56,440 bases of DNA from Promethearchaeia archaeon (GTDB lineage Archaea; Asgardarchaeota; Lokiarchaeia; Sigyniarchaeales; SOKP01): positions 1-56,440 of the forward strand of contig JAHQWK010000005.1 in assembly GCA_029856145.1 (NCBI GenBank), in the 5' to 3' direction. The position numbers were made by a program, and so were the translations under genes. Each line of letters starts with the position of its first letter. The first letter of the stretch is position 1. This document shows, piece by piece, positions 2,017-48,731 of this stretch. Under the pieces are notes generated by a model. The model saw only the letters and a list, made by a program, of their open reading frames with translations. It was not told the DNA's origin and made no database searches.

Positions 2017-2478
2017 ATGGCAGTTTTAGAAGTTGGAATTAATCTTGGTATGAAAAATTTAGTTGAGAACAAGTATTATTCATCTTCAGATAACATTTTA
2101 GATCCTAATATCCGCGCTAAATTTTTGAGTGGATTAAAAAGTTGTTTTACTGAGGTATTTGGAGATAAGATTAATGTAATATCTCTTTCGAACTTTGAGA
2201 TTGTATGCTACTTTAAAATGATTGAATTACCAAGTAAAGAAGATAATGACACTCAACCATTATTATCATTTGCTATTATTGAAAAGGGAACAAATCACAA
2301 TTTTGTGAAGCAACATTTAAAGGAGATAATTTCTCAGTTTCTCAATAGATTTCCCGTTAATGACATTTTTTCTAAAGAGGCTAAATATTTTGAAGGTTTT
2401 GAGTCCCGAATTGATGAAATTCTTGGAGATTTAAGATTAAAAATTGAGGATCGTATAAAGTCTGTATTCAGAGATTAG
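2017..2478 (+). CDS. Longin-like domain protein
   Basis: Beta-hairpin, then helix DPNIRAKFLSGLKSCFTEVFG, three strands and C-terminal helices. Paralogous to 22174..22635. Confidence 0.65.
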   Translation: MAVLEVGINLGMKNLVENKYYSSSDNILDPNIRAKFLSGLKSCFTEVFGDKINVISLSNFEIVCYFKMIELPSKEDNDTQPLLSFAIIEKGTNHNFVKQHLKEIISQFLNRFPVNDIFSKEAKYFEGFESRIDEILGDLRLKIEDRIKSVFRD

Positions 2479-2506: not shown

Positions 2507-4723
2507 TTATTCTTCTTTAAAAATATCATCTACTAGTTTATCATTAACCTCGTTTTTAAAAGGAGAAAGTGATCCAGTCCAGTTTTTTAATACATCTAAG
2601 TATTGGGTCTCAAATTTTTTAACAAATTCCTTTAAAGGAGTTCTAACTTCAGTCGTTTGATTTCCTTTAATAAATAAGGCTCCAAATATGCGATTTCCAT
2701 ATTCTAGAAGGATAGTAATATCTCCATGGTCAATTTTCTTTAAAACTTCGGTGGATTTTGTCATCTCTTTAATAAAAGAGGTAATAGCAGAGAACATTCC
2801 AGAGATTAGTCCGGGATCTTGCTCGACATCTTTTTGGAAAGTATAATTATAAACTCCTCGCCCATCATCATAAATAATGTAAAGTCCTTGTTTTTCTACA
2901 GGTTCAAAAAGATAGCTCAATTCTGGCATTAATATATTAATTAGATTGTTTTTATAAAGATATCTCAAAGTAAAATAGAATCTTTTCCTTTCAATTTCAT
3001 CTACAGGCTTCACTTCTTCGAGTAATTTATCAGATTCAAGTAATTTCATGATGACTTTTATTTCTTCTCGTTCTTGCTCAATATATTCTAATTCAACACC
3101 CTCTCTTCTAGAAATTAAATAACCATCTTTATTTTCAGCGTAATCATCATAAATGGGAAAATCATTAATGGTGGAATAGATAATTTTCTTTACTTGGTCT
3201 TGTTCTATTGGAATGTTTTTAATTCTAAATTCTTTTTTCAAATAGAAGATCATTAAGCTCCACAGTATAATATTAAAGATGTAACGCGTATGTACATACG
3301 GTGCCGCTAAAATACTTAAAAAATCTGGTAGATATGCTTCTAAACTTGCTGTCCTTAGTGTATAGAAATTTAAACCGAAGACTCTGGTGAAACTTGTTTT
3401 TCCAGTTAACCAATAAAGATCCCCACTCGTAAAAACTAAAAGAATTGAAAGAGTAATGATTACAGGGAGATAAATTGATATACCTAATCCTTTACTTTTT
3501 AAGAATTTTAGACCATAAGCTAGAATTAAAATCAGAATTATAGCAGGTATTATTTCCGTTATTAAAATTCCATAAATAATTAATAGATCAAATTGTAGAA
3601 TAAGATACAAATCTGGATTACTAAGTGTGTATTCTCCAGCTGCGTATATTGCTAATTCTTCTGGTGAACCGGGTACACCAAATAGAGGAGTATATACAAA
3701 ATTAGTTAATACTAAATTCAAAATAAAGTAGCTTACTAAAGCTAAAGCCCCAAAGATTAACATATAGTAGAAATTTTGGGTATTTACTTTCCGTGTCTTT
3801 CTATTTTTCCACCAATCAATTAATTTAACGAAAACTAGTATGGATATTGGCTCAAAGATATCAAGGAATAGAATAAATATCACAGATGCCATTATAAAAT
3901 ACGCAAAGAAGTAAATAATTATAGCAATTGATCCTTTATATAGTAAAGCGAACAGTATAATCGAAAAGATTGACATTGGTGTTCCTATCGTATACAGGCT
4001 TTTATAAGTTTGTTCTCTTATTTTTTCACCAAAAAATCTCCCTTTTAAAGCAACTTGACTTGAAAAAAGTATTTCAATACTAAAAATAAAGATTGCTAAA
4101 TACACAAATAGTATTTCTAAAAACCACCCTAAAGAGGTTCCCCCTGTAGTTAATGATTCCTCTGATAAACCAGAAATTTGGAGTATAACTTGCATTAGAT
4201 AGAGAGATATTGGTAGTAAAACAATCATTAATTTCAGAATTTGTTTCTCGCGAGACCAATTATTTCTAATCAATGCTTTTTTAGTTCGCTCTAAAGGACT
4301 TTCTTTTATTTCGTAACTTATTTGTTCTAAATTCGATTTTAATGAACCCTCTTCTTTTCTTAACTTGTTCCATAAAAATATTATTGAAATAAAAGGAGCA
4401 ACTAAAAATATAAATGGCAGAGTAATTATCGGGTATGAGAAAAACTGCGCTATTAATGATCCTAAATGTGTAAAGATATAAGCGACCCCATAGGCTATAT
4501 TACCTTCTTCTGCGGGAGGTACCCCTAACTCATCAGGAGTTTCTCCAACTTGAAATATCATTGGGAGAATCCAATAGATAATATAAAATACAGTAATACC
4601 AAGAAATATTCTTAAATATAGTTTACCAATAGTTTTTTTCCATATGAAAAATAAGGGAATAGCTAGAATTATTATGGGTAGTGCGTTAAATATTATCATA
4701 AAAACAATTTCAATAGGCTCCAT
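2507..4723 (-). CDS. Polytopic membrane protein with C-terminal longin-like domain
   Basis: About a dozen or more hydrophobic segments in residues 1-495. C-terminal GLYIIYDDGR...DPGLISGMFSAITSFIKEM...LKKIDHGDITILLEYG...LKEFVKKFE is the Asgard longin pattern. Confidence 0.8.
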   Translation of the reverse strand: MEPIEIVFMIIFNALPIIILAIPLFFIWKKTIGKLYLRIFLGITVFYIIYWILPMIFQVGETPDELGVPPAEEGNIAYGVAYIFTHLGSLIAQFFSYPIITLPFIFLVAPFISIIFLWNKLRKEEGSLKSNLEQISYEIKESPLERTKKALIRNNWSREKQILKLMIVLLPISLYLMQVILQISGLSEESLTTGGTSLGWFLEILFVYLAIFIFSIEILFSSQVALKGRFFGEKIREQTYKSLYTIGTPMSIFSIILFALLYKGSIAIIIYFFAYFIMASVIFILFLDIFEPISILVFVKLIDWWKNRKTRKVNTQNFYYMLIFGALALVSYFILNLVLTNFVYTPLFGVPGSPEELAIYAAGEYTLSNPDLYLILQFDLLIIYGILITEIIPAIILILILAYGLKFLKSKGLGISIYLPVIITLSILLVFTSGDLYWLTGKTSFTRVFGLNFYTLRTASLEAYLPDFLSILAAPYVHTRYIFNIILWSLMIFYLKKEFRIKNIPIEQDQVKKIIYSTINDFPIYDDYAENKDGYLISRREGVELEYIEQEREEIKVIMKLLESDKLLEEVKPVDEIERKRFYFTLRYLYKNNLINILMPELSYLFEPVEKQGLYIIYDDGRGVYNYTFQKDVEQDPGLISGMFSAITSFIKEMTKSTEVLKKIDHGDITILLEYGNRIFGALFIKGNQTTEVRTPLKEFVKKFETQYLDVLKNWTGSLSPFKNEVNDKLVDDIFKEE

Positions 4724-4809: not shown

Positions 4810-5928
4810 TTGATTATTTTTAATTTTGCCATGACTTCTAATAATAAAGTTGGAATTATTCTCGATGATGATTTTTCTTCAAAAAACGTACCCCCTTATC
4901 CGTATCCTATGTTTCTTTCATATGAAACTCCTTTAAGGATTAAAGCTGTTATAGGCTACTTAGAGAAGAACCGGATTTTTGACGATGAGAGAATTATTAA
5001 ATTAAAGCCATTACCTATAGAAGAGGAGATTATTTACTTAGCACATACAAAATATCATGTTGATTCAATTAAGGCACTCTCGAGTAGAGGAAATGGATTA
5101 TTAGGTGAAGAAGTTTATGTTACTGAAGATACTTTCGAATTAGCTAAAAAAGCAATAGGTGGTGCTGTTAGTGCAGTCACAAGCGTAATTAATCAAAAAG
5201 TTAATCAATCTATAGCACTTATTAGACCACCAGGTCATCATGCTTTACGAGAAACAGCTTCTGGTCTTTGTATTTTTAATAATATCGCTAATTCTATTTT
5301 ATATTTACGTGAAAAATTACAGTATAATAAAAAAATTGCAATTATTGATATAGATGCTCATTTTGGGGATGGTCTTGTCCAATATTTTTATGATGATCCA
5401 ACTATATTGTATTTCTCTATTCATGAATTTGATTTTGTTGAAGGAGAAATTGGGTTTATCGATGAATTAGGTGCGGGAGATGGTCTAGGAAAAAGTATTA
5501 ATTTTCCAATACCATTGAACTCAACTGATGATGATTACTTAGAATTTTTTGATATACTTGAACCTATTCTAAGAGAATTTATGCCAGATCTGATTATAGT
5601 AGCTGCAGGTTTTGATATGTATTTTGCTGATCCTATAGGAAATTGCTTGCTAACAACCATTTCATATTATAAATTCACAGAGAAATTACTAAAAATTGCT
5701 GAGGGAATATGTGAAGGTAAATTAACCTTTATCCTTGAAGGGGGATATAGCTTATTGGGGTTACCTGTTTGTATTCATTCTGTTATTCAATCACTACTAA
5801 AAGAGAAGTATAAACGCCCTTCTTTTGAATATCTAGATTTCTCACATAATTCTAAAAAGAATGAGATATTAAAGATTAAATCGACTTTGAAAAACCTTTT
5901 AGCTAATTTTTGGACGTCGATACAATAA
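4810..5928 (+). CDS. Histone deacetylase-family (Zn-dependent) deacylase
   Basis: RPPGHHA, GLCIFNN, DIDAHFGDG, AAGFD and LEGGY; all catalytic/metal residues are present. Confidence 0.93.
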   Translation: MIIFNFAMTSNNKVGIILDDDFSSKNVPPYPYPMFLSYETPLRIKAVIGYLEKNRIFDDERIIKLKPLPIEEEIIYLAHTKYHVDSIKALSSRGNGLLGEEVYVTEDTFELAKKAIGGAVSAVTSVINQKVNQSIALIRPPGHHALRETASGLCIFNNIANSILYLREKLQYNKKIAIIDIDAHFGDGLVQYFYDDPTILYFSIHEFDFVEGEIGFIDELGAGDGLGKSINFPIPLNSTDDDYLEFFDILEPILREFMPDLIIVAAGFDMYFADPIGNCLLTTISYYKFTEKLLKIAEGICEGKLTFILEGGYSLLGLPVCIHSVIQSLLKEKYKRPSFEYLDFSHNSKKNEILKIKSTLKNLLANFWTSIQ

Positions 5929-5942
5929 AAAAATGGAAAAAG

Positions 5943-6356
5943 TTAAACAAAATCAGTTAACCTTTTAGCGTACTCTTGAGCTGCGAAAAGACAGTCACGA
6001 GGACCAACTTGTGGATTAATATAGCAGATTAATGCCCCAGTACCTCCAATAGGAACAGGACAAATAATAATATGCCCTTTATGCATGATATTCGTTCCAA
6101 TTATTCTTTCTTCTGTATTTTCTACAATCATATACTTAATTCCTTGAATAACAATATTACTGATTCCTTTTTGGCCTAACTCTAATTTTTGGTTAAGTAA
6201 TTCGTTAATTGAATCAAGATCACTTGTGATATTCCAATTTTCTGTTTGAGTTACTAACTTACCATCTTTATTTATAATAGCAACTCCAAAAATATTAGTT
6301 TCCTGATTGAACAACTCATCAATTATAGTTTCAATTTCTTCAGACATTATAACCAA
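5943..6356 (-). CDS. Asgard (Loki-type) profilin
   Basis: AIINKDGK.VTQTENWNI, IQGIKYMIVENTEER.IGTNI..KGH..ICP.PIGG.GALI.YINP..GPRD closely matches my recollection of characterised Lokiarchaeal profilins. Probable start is MSEE at 6347. Confidence 0.9.
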   Translation of the reverse strand: MVIMSEEIETIIDELFNQETNIFGVAIINKDGKLVTQTENWNITSDLDSINELLNQKLELGQKGISNIVIQGIKYMIVENTEERIIGTNIMHKGHIIICPVPIGGTGALICYINPQVGPRDCLFAAQEYAKRLTDFV

Positions 6357-22173: not shown

Positions 22174-22635
22174 TTATAATATTCCTCTTAACTTTTGATC
22201 AATAGTTTGCGTATCGGTTCCAAAGATTGTATCAATAGATTGTTTGAAATCTTTAAATTGCGATACCTCAGATAAATTTTTACCTGTATTTAAAGATTTA
22301 AATTCTTTTAATACTTGTTTCAATAATGGTTGAATGACTTTATGAATGTATCTTTCTATTTTTTTCTCTTTATCTAATATAGCATAAGAGATTAGAAGTT
22401 CAGGCTCTATGCTATCTTCACTTGTTATTTTATCTTCAGTGAATGTAATAAGAAATTTTTTTCCTTCAAAATATTCTATAATATCCTCTGAAAAAGTAGA
22501 TTGAGCAAAATTTAAAAATGCGGTAAGAAGCCCACTTCTTAAGTCTGTATCAATTTTTCCTAATGATGTTTTGTGGTAACTTTTTTTTACTAAAGTAAAT
22601 CCTCTGAATAATACCCCAGCTTCTCTAACAACCAT
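22174..22635 (-). CDS. Longin-like domain protein
   Basis: DTDLRSGLLTAFLNFAQSTF longin helix; paralogue of 2017..2478. Confidence 0.7.
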   Translation of the reverse strand: MVVREAGVLFRGFTLVKKSYHKTSLGKIDTDLRSGLLTAFLNFAQSTFSEDIIEYFEGKKFLITFTEDKITSEDSIEPELLISYAILDKEKKIERYIHKVIQPLLKQVLKEFKSLNTGKNLSEVSQFKDFKQSIDTIFGTDTQTIDQKLRGIL

Positions 22636-28810: not shown

Positions 28811-29089
28811 CTAGAATTCATAATCAAACCCTTTGAATTCATTTGTAGGAGGAGTAAATTCATGTTCTATTTTCTCGACTTGAGCATGCTTAGGACCTTG
28901 TTTAGAGAACTTTAATAATTCAAATAATTTATCCTGAGGTCCTTCAGCTTCAATATAGACGGTGCCATCAGACATATTTTTAACGTATCCAGTTAAACCT
29001 AATTTTCGAGCAACCTTCCTAGTAGTATAGCGAAAAAAAACACCTTGCACGTATCCGAATACTTTAATTTTTATCTTAGATACTTTCAT
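28811..29089 (-). CDS. acyP: Acylphosphatase
   Basis: VFGYVQGVFFR, GYVKN..DGTV, GP..AQV. Confidence 0.95.
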   Translation of the reverse strand: MKVSKIKIKVFGYVQGVFFRYTTRKVARKLGLTGYVKNMSDGTVYIEAEGPQDKLFELLKFSKQGPKHAQVEKIEHEFTPPTNEFKGFDYEF

Positions 29090-29742
29090 ACTCTCAAATA
29101 ATAAGAATCTTTCTCAGAGTCATATCCTACAACATTATTTTTTACAAGCGTTTCAAGGACACTTAATAACCATTGTTTTTTTGTCATTATCACCTTTTTA
29201 AAATCTTCAAGCTTTACTAGATCTTTAATTGCTAGCAAGAATAAGATTTTACTTTTTACAGGTAAATGATTTGTTTTTGTAATGAAATCGAATTTTACTT
29301 CATAATCATATTCTCTTGTTTTTAGAAAGGCAACCTCATTACTTAATTTTGTTATTACTTCATCAGTAGTACGGAAAGCATCCAAACTGATATGAAACAT
29401 CGCCTCTAGAGTTTCTTTTAATTTCTCTTCTTCTGTTAATTTATCAATCTCTTGATTAAATTTTTCGAGAATTTCTAAATAGTCATTACCATCATCAAAT
29501 TTGCTTAACACTAAAACAATTATGATTTCTTTTTTTTCATTATAATAAGAAACTGAGTTCCATTTTTTTTCTTCTGTAATAATGTAAGATTCAGTAAAGT
29601 TATGTGATATCGTTATTTGTTGTACCACTGGATTTGGAATTTCTAAGTCTTCAGGGAATTTTAAATAAATAATACCTCCCTCAACCTCATCCCAACGAAT
29701 TAAAAAGATACCATTTGGCATTGTATCTATTTCAGCGTCCAA
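29086..29742 (-). CDS. uDENN/longin-like N-terminal domain plus C-terminal winged helix
   Basis: IFLIRWDEVEGG.IYLKFP start (uDENN-like), coiled segment, then LETLVKNNVVGYD..KDSYYL wHTH. Confidence 0.55.
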   Translation of the reverse strand: MDAEIDTMPNGIFLIRWDEVEGGIIYLKFPEDLEIPNPVVQQITISHNFTESYIITEEKKWNSVSYYNEKKEIIIVLVLSKFDDGNDYLEILEKFNQEIDKLTEEEKLKETLEAMFHISLDAFRTTDEVITKLSNEVAFLKTREYDYEVKFDFITKTNHLPVKSKILFLLAIKDLVKLEDFKKVIMTKKQWLLSVLETLVKNNVVGYDSEKDSYYLRV

Positions 29743-36006: not shown

Positions 36007-36561
36007 TTAAATCTCTACACCATGGTTGTTCAAGATTTGATTTACTAGAAGTATAAAAGCTTCTTCAATATTTTCTCCCAGTTTTGCACTTGTTTCAATA
36101 AAGTGGCTAGCTTTGATTTTTTGGGCTATTTTTTTACCTCTCTCTTGTGTTACTGTCCTTTGGTCTGTTAAATCTGATTTATTGCCAATTAATATATATG
36201 CTCCCTCTTTCTTAACATATTTTTTGAAATCTCGTAACCATTTGGAATTTATGCTATCAAAAGTGCTATAGCGAGTAACATCATAAACCAGTAAAGCACC
36301 TTGACATCCCTGAAAATACATACTGCGAACAACTCGGTACTTTTCTTGACCTGCTAGATCCCACATTATAAGTCGAACTTTTGTGCTATTCAAGTTTACA
36401 TCTTTACGAACAATGTTTGCTCCTAGCGTAGGTTTGTAGTCCTCGTTAAATGAGCCTTCTACAAATTGATTTATCAAAGATGTCTTACCTACAGCAGCAT
36501 CTCCTAAAATAACTACTTTGTATACGAATTCTCGATCGAGATTAGCATCTTCGATTATCAT
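36007..36561 (-). CDS. Rab-like small GTPase
   Basis: GDAAVGKT, PTLG, WDLAGQEKY, GNKSD, ETSAK. Confidence 0.95.
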   Translation of the reverse strand: MIIEDANLDREFVYKVVILGDAAVGKTSLINQFVEGSFNEDYKPTLGANIVRKDVNLNSTKVRLIMWDLAGQEKYRVVRSMYFQGCQGALLVYDVTRYSTFDSINSKWLRDFKKYVKKEGAYILIGNKSDLTDQRTVTQERGKKIAQKIKASHFIETSAKLGENIEEAFILLVNQILNNHGVEI

Positions 36562-36688
36562 TGTGCAATTTAATATTTTGTTGTAGGTCTATTTAATACT
36601 TTTTTCATTTTTTTATAAAAAATTATATTAATGTCTAAATGGATTTCTTATATTACTTCAATTATATAACTTAATTTTCGTTTTTAAC

Positions 36689-37255
36689 TTATTTAATACT
36701 TTTGTCAATTTTTAATTTAACTATGAAACTATTATGTTGGGGATCTTTTATGTCATCTATATCTCTCTCATAAATAACTTTATGTTCTGATGGTAAGGAT
36801 TTTTGTAATGAATTAACTAAAAATCCTTTAAACAAATCACAAGGAACTCCAATCTCAGAACAAAAGATACATCGATCGACACTTATAAACATTTCATTTT
36901 CGTTATTTTCTCTAATACTAACCTTCCAATCTGCTATAATTGAAGAATTTATTTCATCAATAATTTCTTCAAAACTTTTTCCAAATGGAAATAAATAAAA
37001 TGAGAATTTCTTACCAATTTCAAAAAGGAGATCAGAGGAATCATATAATAAACAATTTTGAGCAGATATGATTTTTTTAAAAGAAAAAAAGTCTAATGTA
37101 TCATTAGGGTTTTTATCTCTTATATCCTTTATGTGTATCATTCCTGCTTCTTTTAAGATAGATTTCATCCCATCATAATCAAGGATATCGTGATAGGCTT
37201 GAAGAAGCGCCACAATAACTTTATTTTTTACAAACCCTTTATAATCTCCAATCAT
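36689..37255 (-). CDS. V4R/H-NOX-fold-like protein
   Basis: DIL..DGMKSILKEAG, FEIGKKF, DRCIFCSE...PCDLFKGFL match the V4R Cys pattern. Confidence 0.7.
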   Translation of the reverse strand: MIGDYKGFVKNKVIVALLQAYHDILDYDGMKSILKEAGMIHIKDIRDKNPNDTLDFFSFKKIISAQNCLLYDSSDLLFEIGKKFSFYLFPFGKSFEEIIDEINSSIIADWKVSIRENNENEMFISVDRCIFCSEIGVPCDLFKGFLVNSLQKSLPSEHKVIYERDIDDIKDPQHNSFIVKLKIDKSIK

Positions 37256-37294
37256 TTCTGTCTAATTCGATACCTTACTTTTTATAATAATTTA

Positions 37295-37855
37295 TTAATT
37301 TCTTTCGAATTTAACTCCACTTTTCTTTAATATATACAAAACTAATTTTTTAAACGCTTCCTCAACGTTTTCCCCATATTTTGCACTTGTTTCTATAAAC
37401 TCTGCAGCATCAATCTTTTGAGATAATGATTTTCCTTCTTCGGATGATACTTTAATTGAATCTTTTAAATCTAATTTGTTACCTATTAATATATAAACTC
37501 CATCAGGCCTGCTAAATTTTTTAAAATCCTCAAGCCATTTTATTGTTATCTGTTCAAATGTTGAATAACGTGTTATATCATAAACTAGAAGTGCTCCGAC
37601 ACAACCCTGAAAAAAATTTTGACGTGTTAATTCATATTTATCCTGACCGGCTATATCCCATAAGAGCAAACGAATTTTGGAGTTTATTTCGTCAATTCTT
37701 ATATCCTTTGATACTATGTTTACACCTAGAGTTGGCGTGTAACTTTCTTTAAAGGAATTAGTAATATATTTATCAATTAAGGATGTTTTCCCTACTGCAG
37801 GATCTCCTAATATTGCCAACTTTAATGCCCATTCTCTATTCTTATTATATACCAT
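37295..37855 (-). CDS. Rab-like small GTPase
   Basis: GDPAVGKT, PTLG, WDIAGQDKY, GNKLD, ETSAK. Confidence 0.95.
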   Translation of the reverse strand: MVYNKNREWALKLAILGDPAVGKTSLIDKYITNSFKESYTPTLGVNIVSKDIRIDEINSKIRLLLWDIAGQDKYELTRQNFFQGCVGALLVYDITRYSTFEQITIKWLEDFKKFSRPDGVYILIGNKLDLKDSIKVSSEEGKSLSQKIDAAEFIETSAKYGENVEEAFKKLVLYILKKSGVKFERN

Positions 37856-37872
37856 TAAATCTCAACCCATTT

Positions 37873-38307
37873 TCATAAATCTAAAAGCGATAAATTAAAT
37901 TGAGGATCCTCAGCGCGACTTAATTCTTGATCAATTTCCAATATTTTAACTTCACCTGTAACGGATATTATGCTTGGTTGGCTTAGATGTCCTCCTATTA
38001 CAGAATAATCACTTCTTCCTAAAGTTACATGTAAGTGAATTATTGGCTCTTTACCTTTATATGTTATATTTCCTATGCAACTAATTAATTCTACGTATTC
38101 ATTAAAAGTTTCCATTTTGTAATTTTTGGAATCAATATCATAAAAACCGATTGTAAATTTTTTTAATGCACCAATACAGTTGATTAATCCAGATTTGATA
38201 TTATATTGTTTAACTAAGTCAATGATTGAGTTTATTAAATCTTCATTAGGTTCAACTTTCCCGAAAATAATGCGTTTAGATCTAGTTTCGATACTTTTCA
38301 TTTTCAT
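37873..38307 (-). CDS. PPC (DUF296) domain protein
   Basis: IGAL, ELISCIGNI, HLHVTLG, GGHL, TGEV. Confidence 0.92.
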   Translation of the reverse strand: MKMKSIETRSKRIIFGKVEPNEDLINSIIDLVKQYNIKSGLINCIGALKKFTIGFYDIDSKNYKMETFNEYVELISCIGNITYKGKEPIIHLHVTLGRSDYSVIGGHLSQPSIISVTGEVKILEIDQELSRAEDPQFNLSLLDL

Positions 38308-38317
38308 TTAAATTTTA

Positions 38318-38854
38318 TTAAACTTTAATTCCTTCATTCCTTAATATTTGAAAGACTAATTTTTCAAAAGCTTTTTCTACATTTTCTCCGTATTTCGCAC
38401 TCGTTTCAACAAGGTCACTTGCGTCTATTTTATCTGCAAGTGCTCTTCCCTCCTCATTGGATACTGTTCTAGAATCTTGTAAGTCAATTTTATTTCCTAT
38501 TAAAACATAAGCTAAATCTTTTTCTCCATATTCATTTAGATCTTCTAACCATTTAGATTCAATATTTTTAAATGTAGCATGTCTGGTTATATCATATATA
38601 AATAATGCCCCTACTACACCTTGAAAAAACATTTTTCGCGAAAGATCATATTTTTCTTGACCAGAAATATCCCAAATAACTAACCGGATTTGATTATGTT
38701 CTGTTTCTAATTCTTTCACACAGATTGAAACGCCTAATGTGGGCTTGTAATCTTCTTTAAATTGGTGATGAGCATACATATTGATCAGAGAGGTTTTACC
38801 AACCGCGCTATCTCCTAATAAAACAAGCTTCAGAACAATGATGTTGTCAGACAT
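38318..38854 (-). CDS. Rab-like small GTPase
   Basis: GDSAVGKT, PTLG, WDISGQEKY, GNKID, ETSAK. Confidence 0.95.
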   Translation of the reverse strand: MSDNIIVLKLVLLGDSAVGKTSLINMYAHHQFKEDYKPTLGVSICVKELETEHNQIRLVIWDISGQEKYDLSRKMFFQGVVGALFIYDITRHATFKNIESKWLEDLNEYGEKDLAYVLIGNKIDLQDSRTVSNEEGRALADKIDASDLVETSAKYGENVEKAFEKLVFQILRNEGIKV

Positions 38855-48233: not shown

Positions 48234-48731
48234 ATGGAATTCCAAAATAATTTTAATCAAAATGGAAATAACTTTGGATTTAAGCTTGATAAGTTTACTT
48301 CTCAAGAGTGTAGGTTTCATGCGTTATATTTTATTGATTATGAGACTGGTGCTTTACTTGTAAGCAACCGATATACGGATAATTTAAATTTTTTAAAGGA
48401 TGACTTAATCTGTAGCTTTTTAAATGCAATTAATTTATTCATTAATGAGATCAATGAAGGTGCCAATGAAGAACTTCAAGAAATTAATTTTAAAGGTACA
48501 AGAATTTTATATGAGAGAGAAGGAAGGCTCTTAGCTATAGCGATTACTAAAAAGACCAATTTACAAATGGAAAGAGGAATTCTAAGAGAAATTGTCGAAG
48601 ATTTTTATATCCGATTTAAGCATCACATTAATAATTTTAATGGAGAAGTATATCCCGCGATACTTGATTATAAAAAAAGATTGAAAAGTATGAATTTGAA
48701 CTCATTATTTAAATTGAATATTCATATTTAG
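48234..48731 (+). CDS. Longin-like domain protein
   Basis: LYFIDYETGALL, DDLICSFLNAINLFINEI, LQEINFKGTRILYE, LREIVEDFY..F. Confidence 0.75.
   Translation: MEFQNNFNQNGNNFGFKLDKFTSQECRFHALYFIDYETGALLVSNRYTDNLNFLKDDLICSFLNAINLFINEINEGANEELQEINFKGTRILYEREGRLLAIAITKKTNLQMERGILREIVEDFYIRFKHHINNFNGEVYPAILDYKKRLKSMNLNSLFKLNIHI

Follow-up and report, generated by a model that had tools for sequence, protein, structure and literature searches.

An eleven-span membrane protein with a C-terminal longin domain in Asgard archaea: a candidate sensor or scaffold for small GTPases

We suggest that the 738-residue protein encoded near one end of the window, i.e. the whole 56,440-nt stretch of DNA from a Lokiarchaeia-type Asgard archaeon analysed here, acts as a membrane sensor or scaffold on which a partner longin and a small GTPase dock, a reading that we put forward tentatively and hold to be somewhat short of probable. 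The gene is an intact ORF with an ATG start and no internal stops, and it is a real conserved gene: its homologues, the named ones of which are from Promethearchaeota/Lokiarchaeota, share 27-84% identity. AlphaFold2 (AF2) gives the order 11-TM domain, linker with winged helix and C-terminal longin (Table 1; full-length model with pLDDT 85.1 and pTM 0.86 from 115 sequences). A first-pass annotation of this DNA had described the product as a large TM bundle, a wHTH-like linker segment and a longin-pattern C-terminus, and all three descriptions stand: eleven spans are found by hydropathy and the AF2 models, the linker holds a winged helix by AF2 and HHalign, and the C-terminus has longin topology with whole-domain matches to solved longins.

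In the model that we favor, (i) the 11-helix domain of this ancient Asgard sensor or scaffold would sit in the cell membrane and keep the longin just inside, (ii) the longin would present its alpha1/beta3 face to a second longin, either its own copy or one of many soluble longins, (iii) the side-by-side longin pair would serve as a binding platform for an unprenylated small GTPase and alter its nucleotide state (compare MglB, TRAPP and Mon1-Ccz1), and (iv) the polar core around E203, probably a binding site for a ligand or ion, would relay the signal inward.

Table 1. Positions of the 11-TM longin gene, its parts and its immediate neighbours in the window
Feature	Position	Strand	Basis
Full gene, 738 aa	2507..4723	-	AF2 model and orthologues
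Membrane domain, residues 1-495, 11 spans	3239..4723	-	Hydropathy, charge bias, membrane-only AF2
Conserved membrane core, residues 140-306 (TM4-TM7 and cytoplasm-side amphipathic helix)	3806..4306	-	Family alignment
E203 codon, outer part of TM5	4115..4117	-	Family conservation
Outside beta-hairpin, residues 436-463, between TM10 and TM11, with near-invariant W438	3335..3418	-	AF2 and conservation
Cytoplasmic linker, residues 496-606: beta-hairpin and winged helix (553-606)	2906..3238	-	AF2, HHalign
Longin domain, residues 607-738	2510..2905	-	AF2, fold search
Longin alpha1-beta3, residues 637-668	2720..2815	-	Conservation
Soluble longin, 153 aa, convergent neighbour	2017..2478	+	ORF list, longin search
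HDAC-family deacetylase gene, divergent neighbour	4831..5928	+	Pfam, locus comparison

A hydropathy scan finds ten strong hydrophobic segments in the membrane domain, and the AF2 models add a helix at residues 468-495 to give 11 membrane spans; the membrane-only model (pLDDT 89.6, pTM 0.89; 148 sequences) is better than the full-length model. Averaged over 56 diverse members, the loops at residues 28-36, 120-162, 222-240, 307-317 and 403-412 are basic and those at 58-75, 184-197 and 343-371 acidic. Because the Lys/Arg bias alternates cleanly between loops, the N-terminus is placed outside and the tail after residue 495 in the cytoplasm, in agreement with the cytoplasmic C-terminus that the first-pass annotation had expected. 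In Heimdall-labelled orthologues (L052-L056, L070) the first long cytoplasmic loop carries a coiled-coil insert of ~50 aa.

Conservation along the protein has two peaks, one over TM4-TM7 and the amphipathic helix that follows and the other over the longin, and the median pairwise identity is 0.38 in the TM4-TM7 core, 0.16 in TM8-11, 0.17 in the linker and 0.43 in the longin. The conserved core residues are W156, E159, K164, P171, G199, E203, Y208, G228, G232, F258, Y275, F283, E291, P292 and K300, and residue 203 is Glu in 55 of the 56 diverse members and Asp in one. In the predicted topology, Y50, S173, Y175, G199, E203, F258, Y271, Y275 and W438 lie toward the outer side and R38, W156, E159, K164, G228, G232, E291, P292 and K300 toward the inner side. 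This pattern of conserved polar residues is compatible with a ligand or ion site, in a putative cavity, that would be coupled to the cytoplasm.

Searches of Pfam, NCBIfam and PDB sequences with the protein and its alignments gave no meaningful match, and the membrane profile matches no other full-length gene of this genome. The fold search of this domain that had been proposed in the first-pass annotation likewise brought up no clear relative among solved folds for the membrane-only model, be it in Foldseek (best E 0.11, TM 0.13), VIA (best Z 6.6) or Atlas (TM 0.24 or less). TM1-TM7 with the N-terminus outside, together with the cytoplasmic amphipathic helix at residues 287-306, form a GPCR-like arrangement in topology only; GPCR chains score Z 2.6-2.8 only, in a comparison with the whole 500-residue model. 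The domain may perhaps have an unrecognised fold, and searches with a 500-residue model prove neither a new fold nor the absence of a GPCR or transporter fold. Enzyme readings (rhomboid, CAAX protease, PAP2, MBOAT) were dropped because the membrane part is without conserved His, Cys or Asp.

Alternatively, the membrane domain would be the output, i.e. a channel or transporter of unrecognised fold, with a GTPase or a partner longin gating it via the longin tail. Eleven spans far exceed the need of an anchor, the conserved intramembrane E203 is joined by the helix-breaking P110, P171 and G247 and by inner-side acidic and basic residues, and the best, if weak, fold match pairs residues 140-290 with the membrane part of polycystin-1 (Z 6.6, 134 aligned, rmsd 4.0). 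However, common helical arrangements can score as high, and the relation to polycystin-1 is without sequence support, showing no sequence match at E 10 and no PLAT-sized insert. Moreover, no transporter or channel fold was matched in the searches described above, and substrate-binding or metabolic genes are not conserved near the gene in 41 loci compared. On balance, we consider a channel or transporter unlikely.

The longin domain is modelled with strands at residues 610-618 and 623-628, a helix at 637-654, strands at 663-666, 669-675 and 679-686, and helices at 691-707 and 724-734. In a fold search with residues 610-738, solved longins occupy the top ranks. The best match is 7q3d_C (CPLANE; Z 13.2, 124 aligned, rmsd 2.7), further matches are Sec22b (3egd_C; Z 12.4) and AP-3 mu and VAMP7 (both 12.3), and CPLANE, Sec22b, AP mu, VAMP7, TRAPP and Mon1-Ccz1 together span Z 9.5-13.2. 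Pfam Intu_longin_1 is matched weakly in 5 of 40 members. Judged by its model, the C-terminal domain thus belongs to the longin superfamily. It is the last domain of the protein, with no DENN core or winged helix behind it.

The face with which the longins of Mon1-Ccz1 and TRAPP contact partner longins and GTPases is strongly conserved here, above the rest of the domain. Conservation is 0.80 in alpha1 and 0.87 in beta3 compared with 0.50 in the rest of the domain, and the mean over residues 637-668 is 0.76 versus 0.50 for the remainder; L639, G642, A646, F650, E653, G667 and D668 are invariant, so that alpha1 carries an invariant GxxxA (G642-x-x-x-A646). Known longin and roadblock pairs dimerise through beta3 and alpha1 and build their GTPase platform from the alpha1 helices (PMC3747258), and bulky changes at Mon1 G250/T254 or Ccz1 G106/G110 in the alpha1 interface abolish GEF activity (PMC5216073). 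By their spacing, rather than by residue-level superposition, G642 and A646 would be equivalent to these small residues. Among the 45 longins of this genome the alpha1 Gly is present in 31 and the Ala in 36; the GxxxA/F/E pattern is common to most of them and is therefore partly a fold signature. A Lokiarchaeota longin domain solved as a dimer (8yqg) is among the fold-search matches, and the predicted homodimer of residues 497-738 (score 0.15, mark 0.42) weighs neither way. No catalytic GEF or GAP element was recognised in the 738-aa protein; the SxDxR of the Mon1 elbow loop is not present, and the alpha2-alpha3 loop has a W-x-G motif instead.

The same fold search bears on the possibility that the membrane domain is a structural anchor for a longin that binds peptides or coat or cytoskeletal partners, like AP/COPI sigma and mu or VAMP7/Sec22b, with no GTPase involved. 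The longins of Sec22b, VAMP7 and AP mu tie with GEF longins (Z 11.7-12.4), and a genomic link to a GTPase was not found. On the other hand, no SNARE motif was found in the protein and neither a SNARE motif nor an adaptin partner is linked to it, conservation peaks on alpha1/beta3 with its small residues as in GTPase platforms, and a conserved 11-helix core is unnecessary for a pure anchor. An anchor of this kind therefore appears unlikely to us.

When searched with a profile of the conserved membrane core, 146 of 400 Asgard genomes, from several classes, prove to contain the gene, essentially in one copy each. In the Loki order the carriers belong to families f1 (96/134), f2 (1/1) and f3 (12/14) and beyond it to f9, f10, f11, f16 (21/22), f17, f26 and f27; several other large families, e.g. 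f13, f15, f18, f19 and f31, gave no match in genomes that are partly incomplete. The cultured carriers are Promethearchaeum syntrophicum (DSAG12_01663, QEE15836) and Lokiarchaeum ossiferum (NEF87_001530), other named members are OdinLCB4_000630 of Odinarchaeum yellowstonii, Heimdallarchaeota-labelled proteins and Baldrarchaeia proteins, and all are annotated as hypothetical. Among 1.84 billion representatives the membrane profile matches 77 proteins only, and an incomplete search of papers and supplements found no literature that names this family, its accessions or its locus tags. No complete family member lacks the C-terminal longin, and four short matches that could have been stand-alone membrane domains proved to be contig-cut or frameshifted. 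Given that the membrane part and the longin part yield trees with the same lineage groups (FastTree, 28 sequences), we conclude that the two parts were fused long ago and have since been passed on together, although trees of this kind are no proof of strict vertical descent.

None of the window's six small GTPases has a C-terminal Cys, as had been noted from the sequence, and a prenylation motif is likewise missing from all 71 GTPase-like ORFs of the genome, of which the sole Cys-ending one terminates in a CxxC zinc-ribbon-like motif. Tran et al. described MK-D1 GTPases as lacking terminal cysteines and as mostly not in operons with their regulators (PMC10933270), and missing prenylation is already published as general for Asgard GTPases (PMC10933270, PMC4915359). 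For this reason the unprenylated state does not single out the 11-TM longin protein. In the 41 loci, no GTPase or longin gene is conserved beside the 11-TM longin gene; small GTPase genes are present in six, about as their density predicts. In this genome 11% of the genes are within 5 kb of a small GTPase gene, and the one nearest to the 11-TM longin gene is 10.8 kb off. As the regulators of MK-D1 GTPases are mostly encoded outside the GTPase operons (PMC10933270), the missing linkage is weak counter-evidence. The most conserved neighbour is the divergent HDAC-family gene (19 of 41 loci, within the Loki order only).

Several other features of these loci were recorded. The segment 4831-9829 of the window, which is kept across much of the Loki order, encodes the HDAC-family deacetylase, profilin (5943-6356), a minimal FtsX-like permease with an ABC ATPase and two membrane proteins. 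On one strand, positions 36007-38854 hold a tandem array of three Rab-like GTPase genes, interspersed with two unrelated genes; two further soluble longins are encoded at 22174-22635 and 48234-48731, and the product of 29086-29742, without a Pfam match, resembles by eye a uDENN/longin-like protein with a C-terminal winged helix. In Odinarchaeia (L046-L048) a gene for a longin-GTPase fusion and a small GTPase gene are found two to three genes away from the 11-TM longin gene, which is also just upstream of a PAP2 phosphatase gene; these neighbours were not seen in other classes.

Fusion of a membrane part to a longin is a general Asgard theme. At least 10 of the 45 longin-like ORFs of this genome are membrane-anchored, i.e. 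the 11-TM protein, four or five 6-7TM proteins and five single-pass surface proteins. A co-oriented run at G000 C9:309088-312643 (L102) comprises a small GTPase gene, two 7TM-longin genes and a soluble longin gene, and this run is a better genomic case for coupling between a membrane longin and a GTPase than the 11-TM longin gene. The five single-pass proteins have a cytoplasmic longin and then a winged-helix-like segment, the reverse of the order in the 11-TM protein; their sites include G000 C24:31885-36546 (3' end in L103), C21:8873-12187, C11:88271-93071 and C13:100000-103590. A database label for Asgard membrane-longin fusions exists and describes the same architecture class, a membrane domain followed by a longin. 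It is an annotation label only, and the large orthogroup that bears it more likely corresponds to the 7TM-longin proteins; compared with the labelled fusions, the 11-TM family is single-copy with 11 spans and an internal winged helix. Among the asCOGs, cog.005893, cog.013555 and cog.012914 came into question for the 11-TM family.

Combining these data, the arguments for a sensor or scaffold that docks a longin and a GTPase are the longin fold on the cytoplasmic side with alpha1/beta3 as its most conserved part and an invariant GxxxA, the obligate fusion with its concordant trees, the 7TM-longin/GTPase run in the same genome and the dimeric 8yqg. Against it speak the lack of a conserved GTPase or longin neighbour, the wide occurrence of GxxxA, the lack of a GEF or GAP element and of a functional match for the membrane domain, and the fact that GTPase regulation is not the task of many longins, with SNARE and adaptor longins among the best matches. 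On this evidence the protein is a candidate for binding or activating a GTPase. A bolder version, which we regard as doubtful, is that an 11-helix receptor of a new membrane fold was present early in Asgard evolution, in which an outside ligand at the E203 core would let the fused longin switch a Rab-like GTPase directly, giving a one-chain receptor-GEF that works without GTPase prenylation.

The first-pass annotation had named a specific partner for the sensor or scaffold, the soluble longin encoded by the neighbouring gene, whose 153-aa ORF does end 28 nt from the 11-TM longin gene, tail to tail. That these two longins form a Mon1-Ccz1-like heterodimeric GEF is improbable. The neighbour is a longin, and in genus g1 at least 26 of 43 carrier genomes have the two genes no more than 5 kb apart, seven of them in direct adjacency; however, the genes are always convergent and otherwise separated by variable genes. 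Across the phylum, this soluble longin is near the 11-TM longin gene in 4 of 41 loci, all four in the genus of the window, and the synteny that had been proposed as a check of the pair is absent from all 36 loci outside genus g1. With the 2017-2478 product as query, no relative was found in the carrier families f9, f10, f11, f17 and f26, i.e. in most carriers beyond Loki, and f16 and f27 gave matches at E 1e-4 or weaker only. Because the linkage is limited to one genus and the family was not found in those five, the neighbour cannot be the general partner of the 11-TM longin family. The linked longin is a genus-level derived duplicate with Lys/Arg at the alpha1 Gly position, the one in the window being the sole longin with Lys there among the 45 of the genome, in contrast to the unlinked, order-wide paralogue (G000 C24:77830-78285), which retains Gly-x-x-x-Ala. 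It may have a genus-specific or inhibitory role, and its altered alpha1 would possibly make it a decoy or an altered-specificity longin. In some genus-g1 genomes (L063:8357-9034 (+), L065), a 225-aa multi-pass membrane gene without a Pfam match is co-directional right behind the 11-TM longin gene, ahead of the soluble longin gene.

The winged helix of the linker is modelled as helix-helix-helix-strand and matches two archaeal HTH families of this genome (HHalign E 1e-5 to 2e-5). Conservation in the linker is limited to hydrophobic core positions and E601, and in the f17 orthologue (L060:267-3680) the linker contains a long acidic insert. Outside its own family its best shape match is DUF742 (TM 0.54, 84 aligned). 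The idea, drawn from conservons, that the linker is a DUF742 was dropped given that the match (E 7e-4 over 51 winged-helix columns) is weaker than those of the HTH controls; the DUF742 motifs (N-terminal PY-x-x-T-G-G-R and C-terminal PD...L...L.GL helix) are absent from the linker, and Pfam PF05331 has no match in the genome. At the sequence level, its likeness to DUF742 is best described as generic winged-helix similarity. A membrane-tethered transcription regulator following the logic of ToxR/CadC, with the winged helix binding DNA, e.g. in the region shared with the divergent deacetylase gene, is very improbable, because the resemblance to archaeal HTH regulators and the retention of the HDAC gene across the Loki order are set against an unconserved recognition-helix surface in one of the least conserved parts of the protein, an HDAC link that is absent beyond the Loki order, and winged helices that also accompany longins in NPRL2/NPRL3 (PMC3747258) and in the single-pass fusions of this genome.

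By analogy, the 11-TM sensor or scaffold may work like Mon1-Ccz1 and TRAPP or, in logic, like a conservon, and it is a member of neither. With Mon1-Ccz1, TRAPP Bet5-Trs23 and CPLANE Fuz-Intu it shares the longin fold and a conserved alpha1/beta3 with small residues four apart. Longin-dimer Rab GEFs, however, are soluble complexes that act on prenylated Rabs, whereas here the longin is fused behind a membrane domain and is without the Mon1 elbow-loop motif. The actinobacterial conservon consists of the membrane kinase CvnA, the roadblock GAP CvnB, the DUF742 protein CvnC and the GTPase CvnD (PMC13343842, PMC11343762). The likeness is one of operation, i.e. membrane input, a winged helix and a roadblock/longin-fold unit; the 11-TM protein differs in that it has no kinase, no linked GTPase and a generic winged helix, all on one polypeptide. 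The longin SNAREs Sec22b and VAMP7 and the SRP receptor SRX are membrane-associated longins too (Z 11.7-12.4). Sec22b and VAMP7, however, have an N-terminal longin, a SNARE motif and one C-terminal span, and the longin of SRX binds SR-beta; that of the 11-TM protein is C-terminal. NPRL2/NPRL3 and folliculin-type longins as well as longin fusions to signalling domains have been described in Asgard archaea (bioRxiv 10.1101/2020.10.19.343400). In the former, longin and winged helix likewise occur together, but these proteins are soluble, and the 11-TM protein has its winged helix before the longin and no DENN core.

Dozens of Rab-like GTPases that bear no lipid tail are present in Asgard archaea, which raises the question of their recruitment to membranes and of their switching (PMC10933270, PMC4917890); recruitment by protein-protein interactions has been suggested (PMC4915359). 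The significance of the 11-TM protein is limited in that its genome has at least ten membrane-longin fusions and that another of these shows the sole clear linkage to a GTPase. Asgard longin families are mostly patchy and multi-copy, whereas the 11-TM family is single-copy in several classes, including Heimdall-labelled lineages, and its presence in both cultured Lokiarchaeia makes it a clean target for pull-downs and structure determination. The 11-TM longin protein is thus a testable candidate for bringing a GTPase switch to the archaeal membrane.
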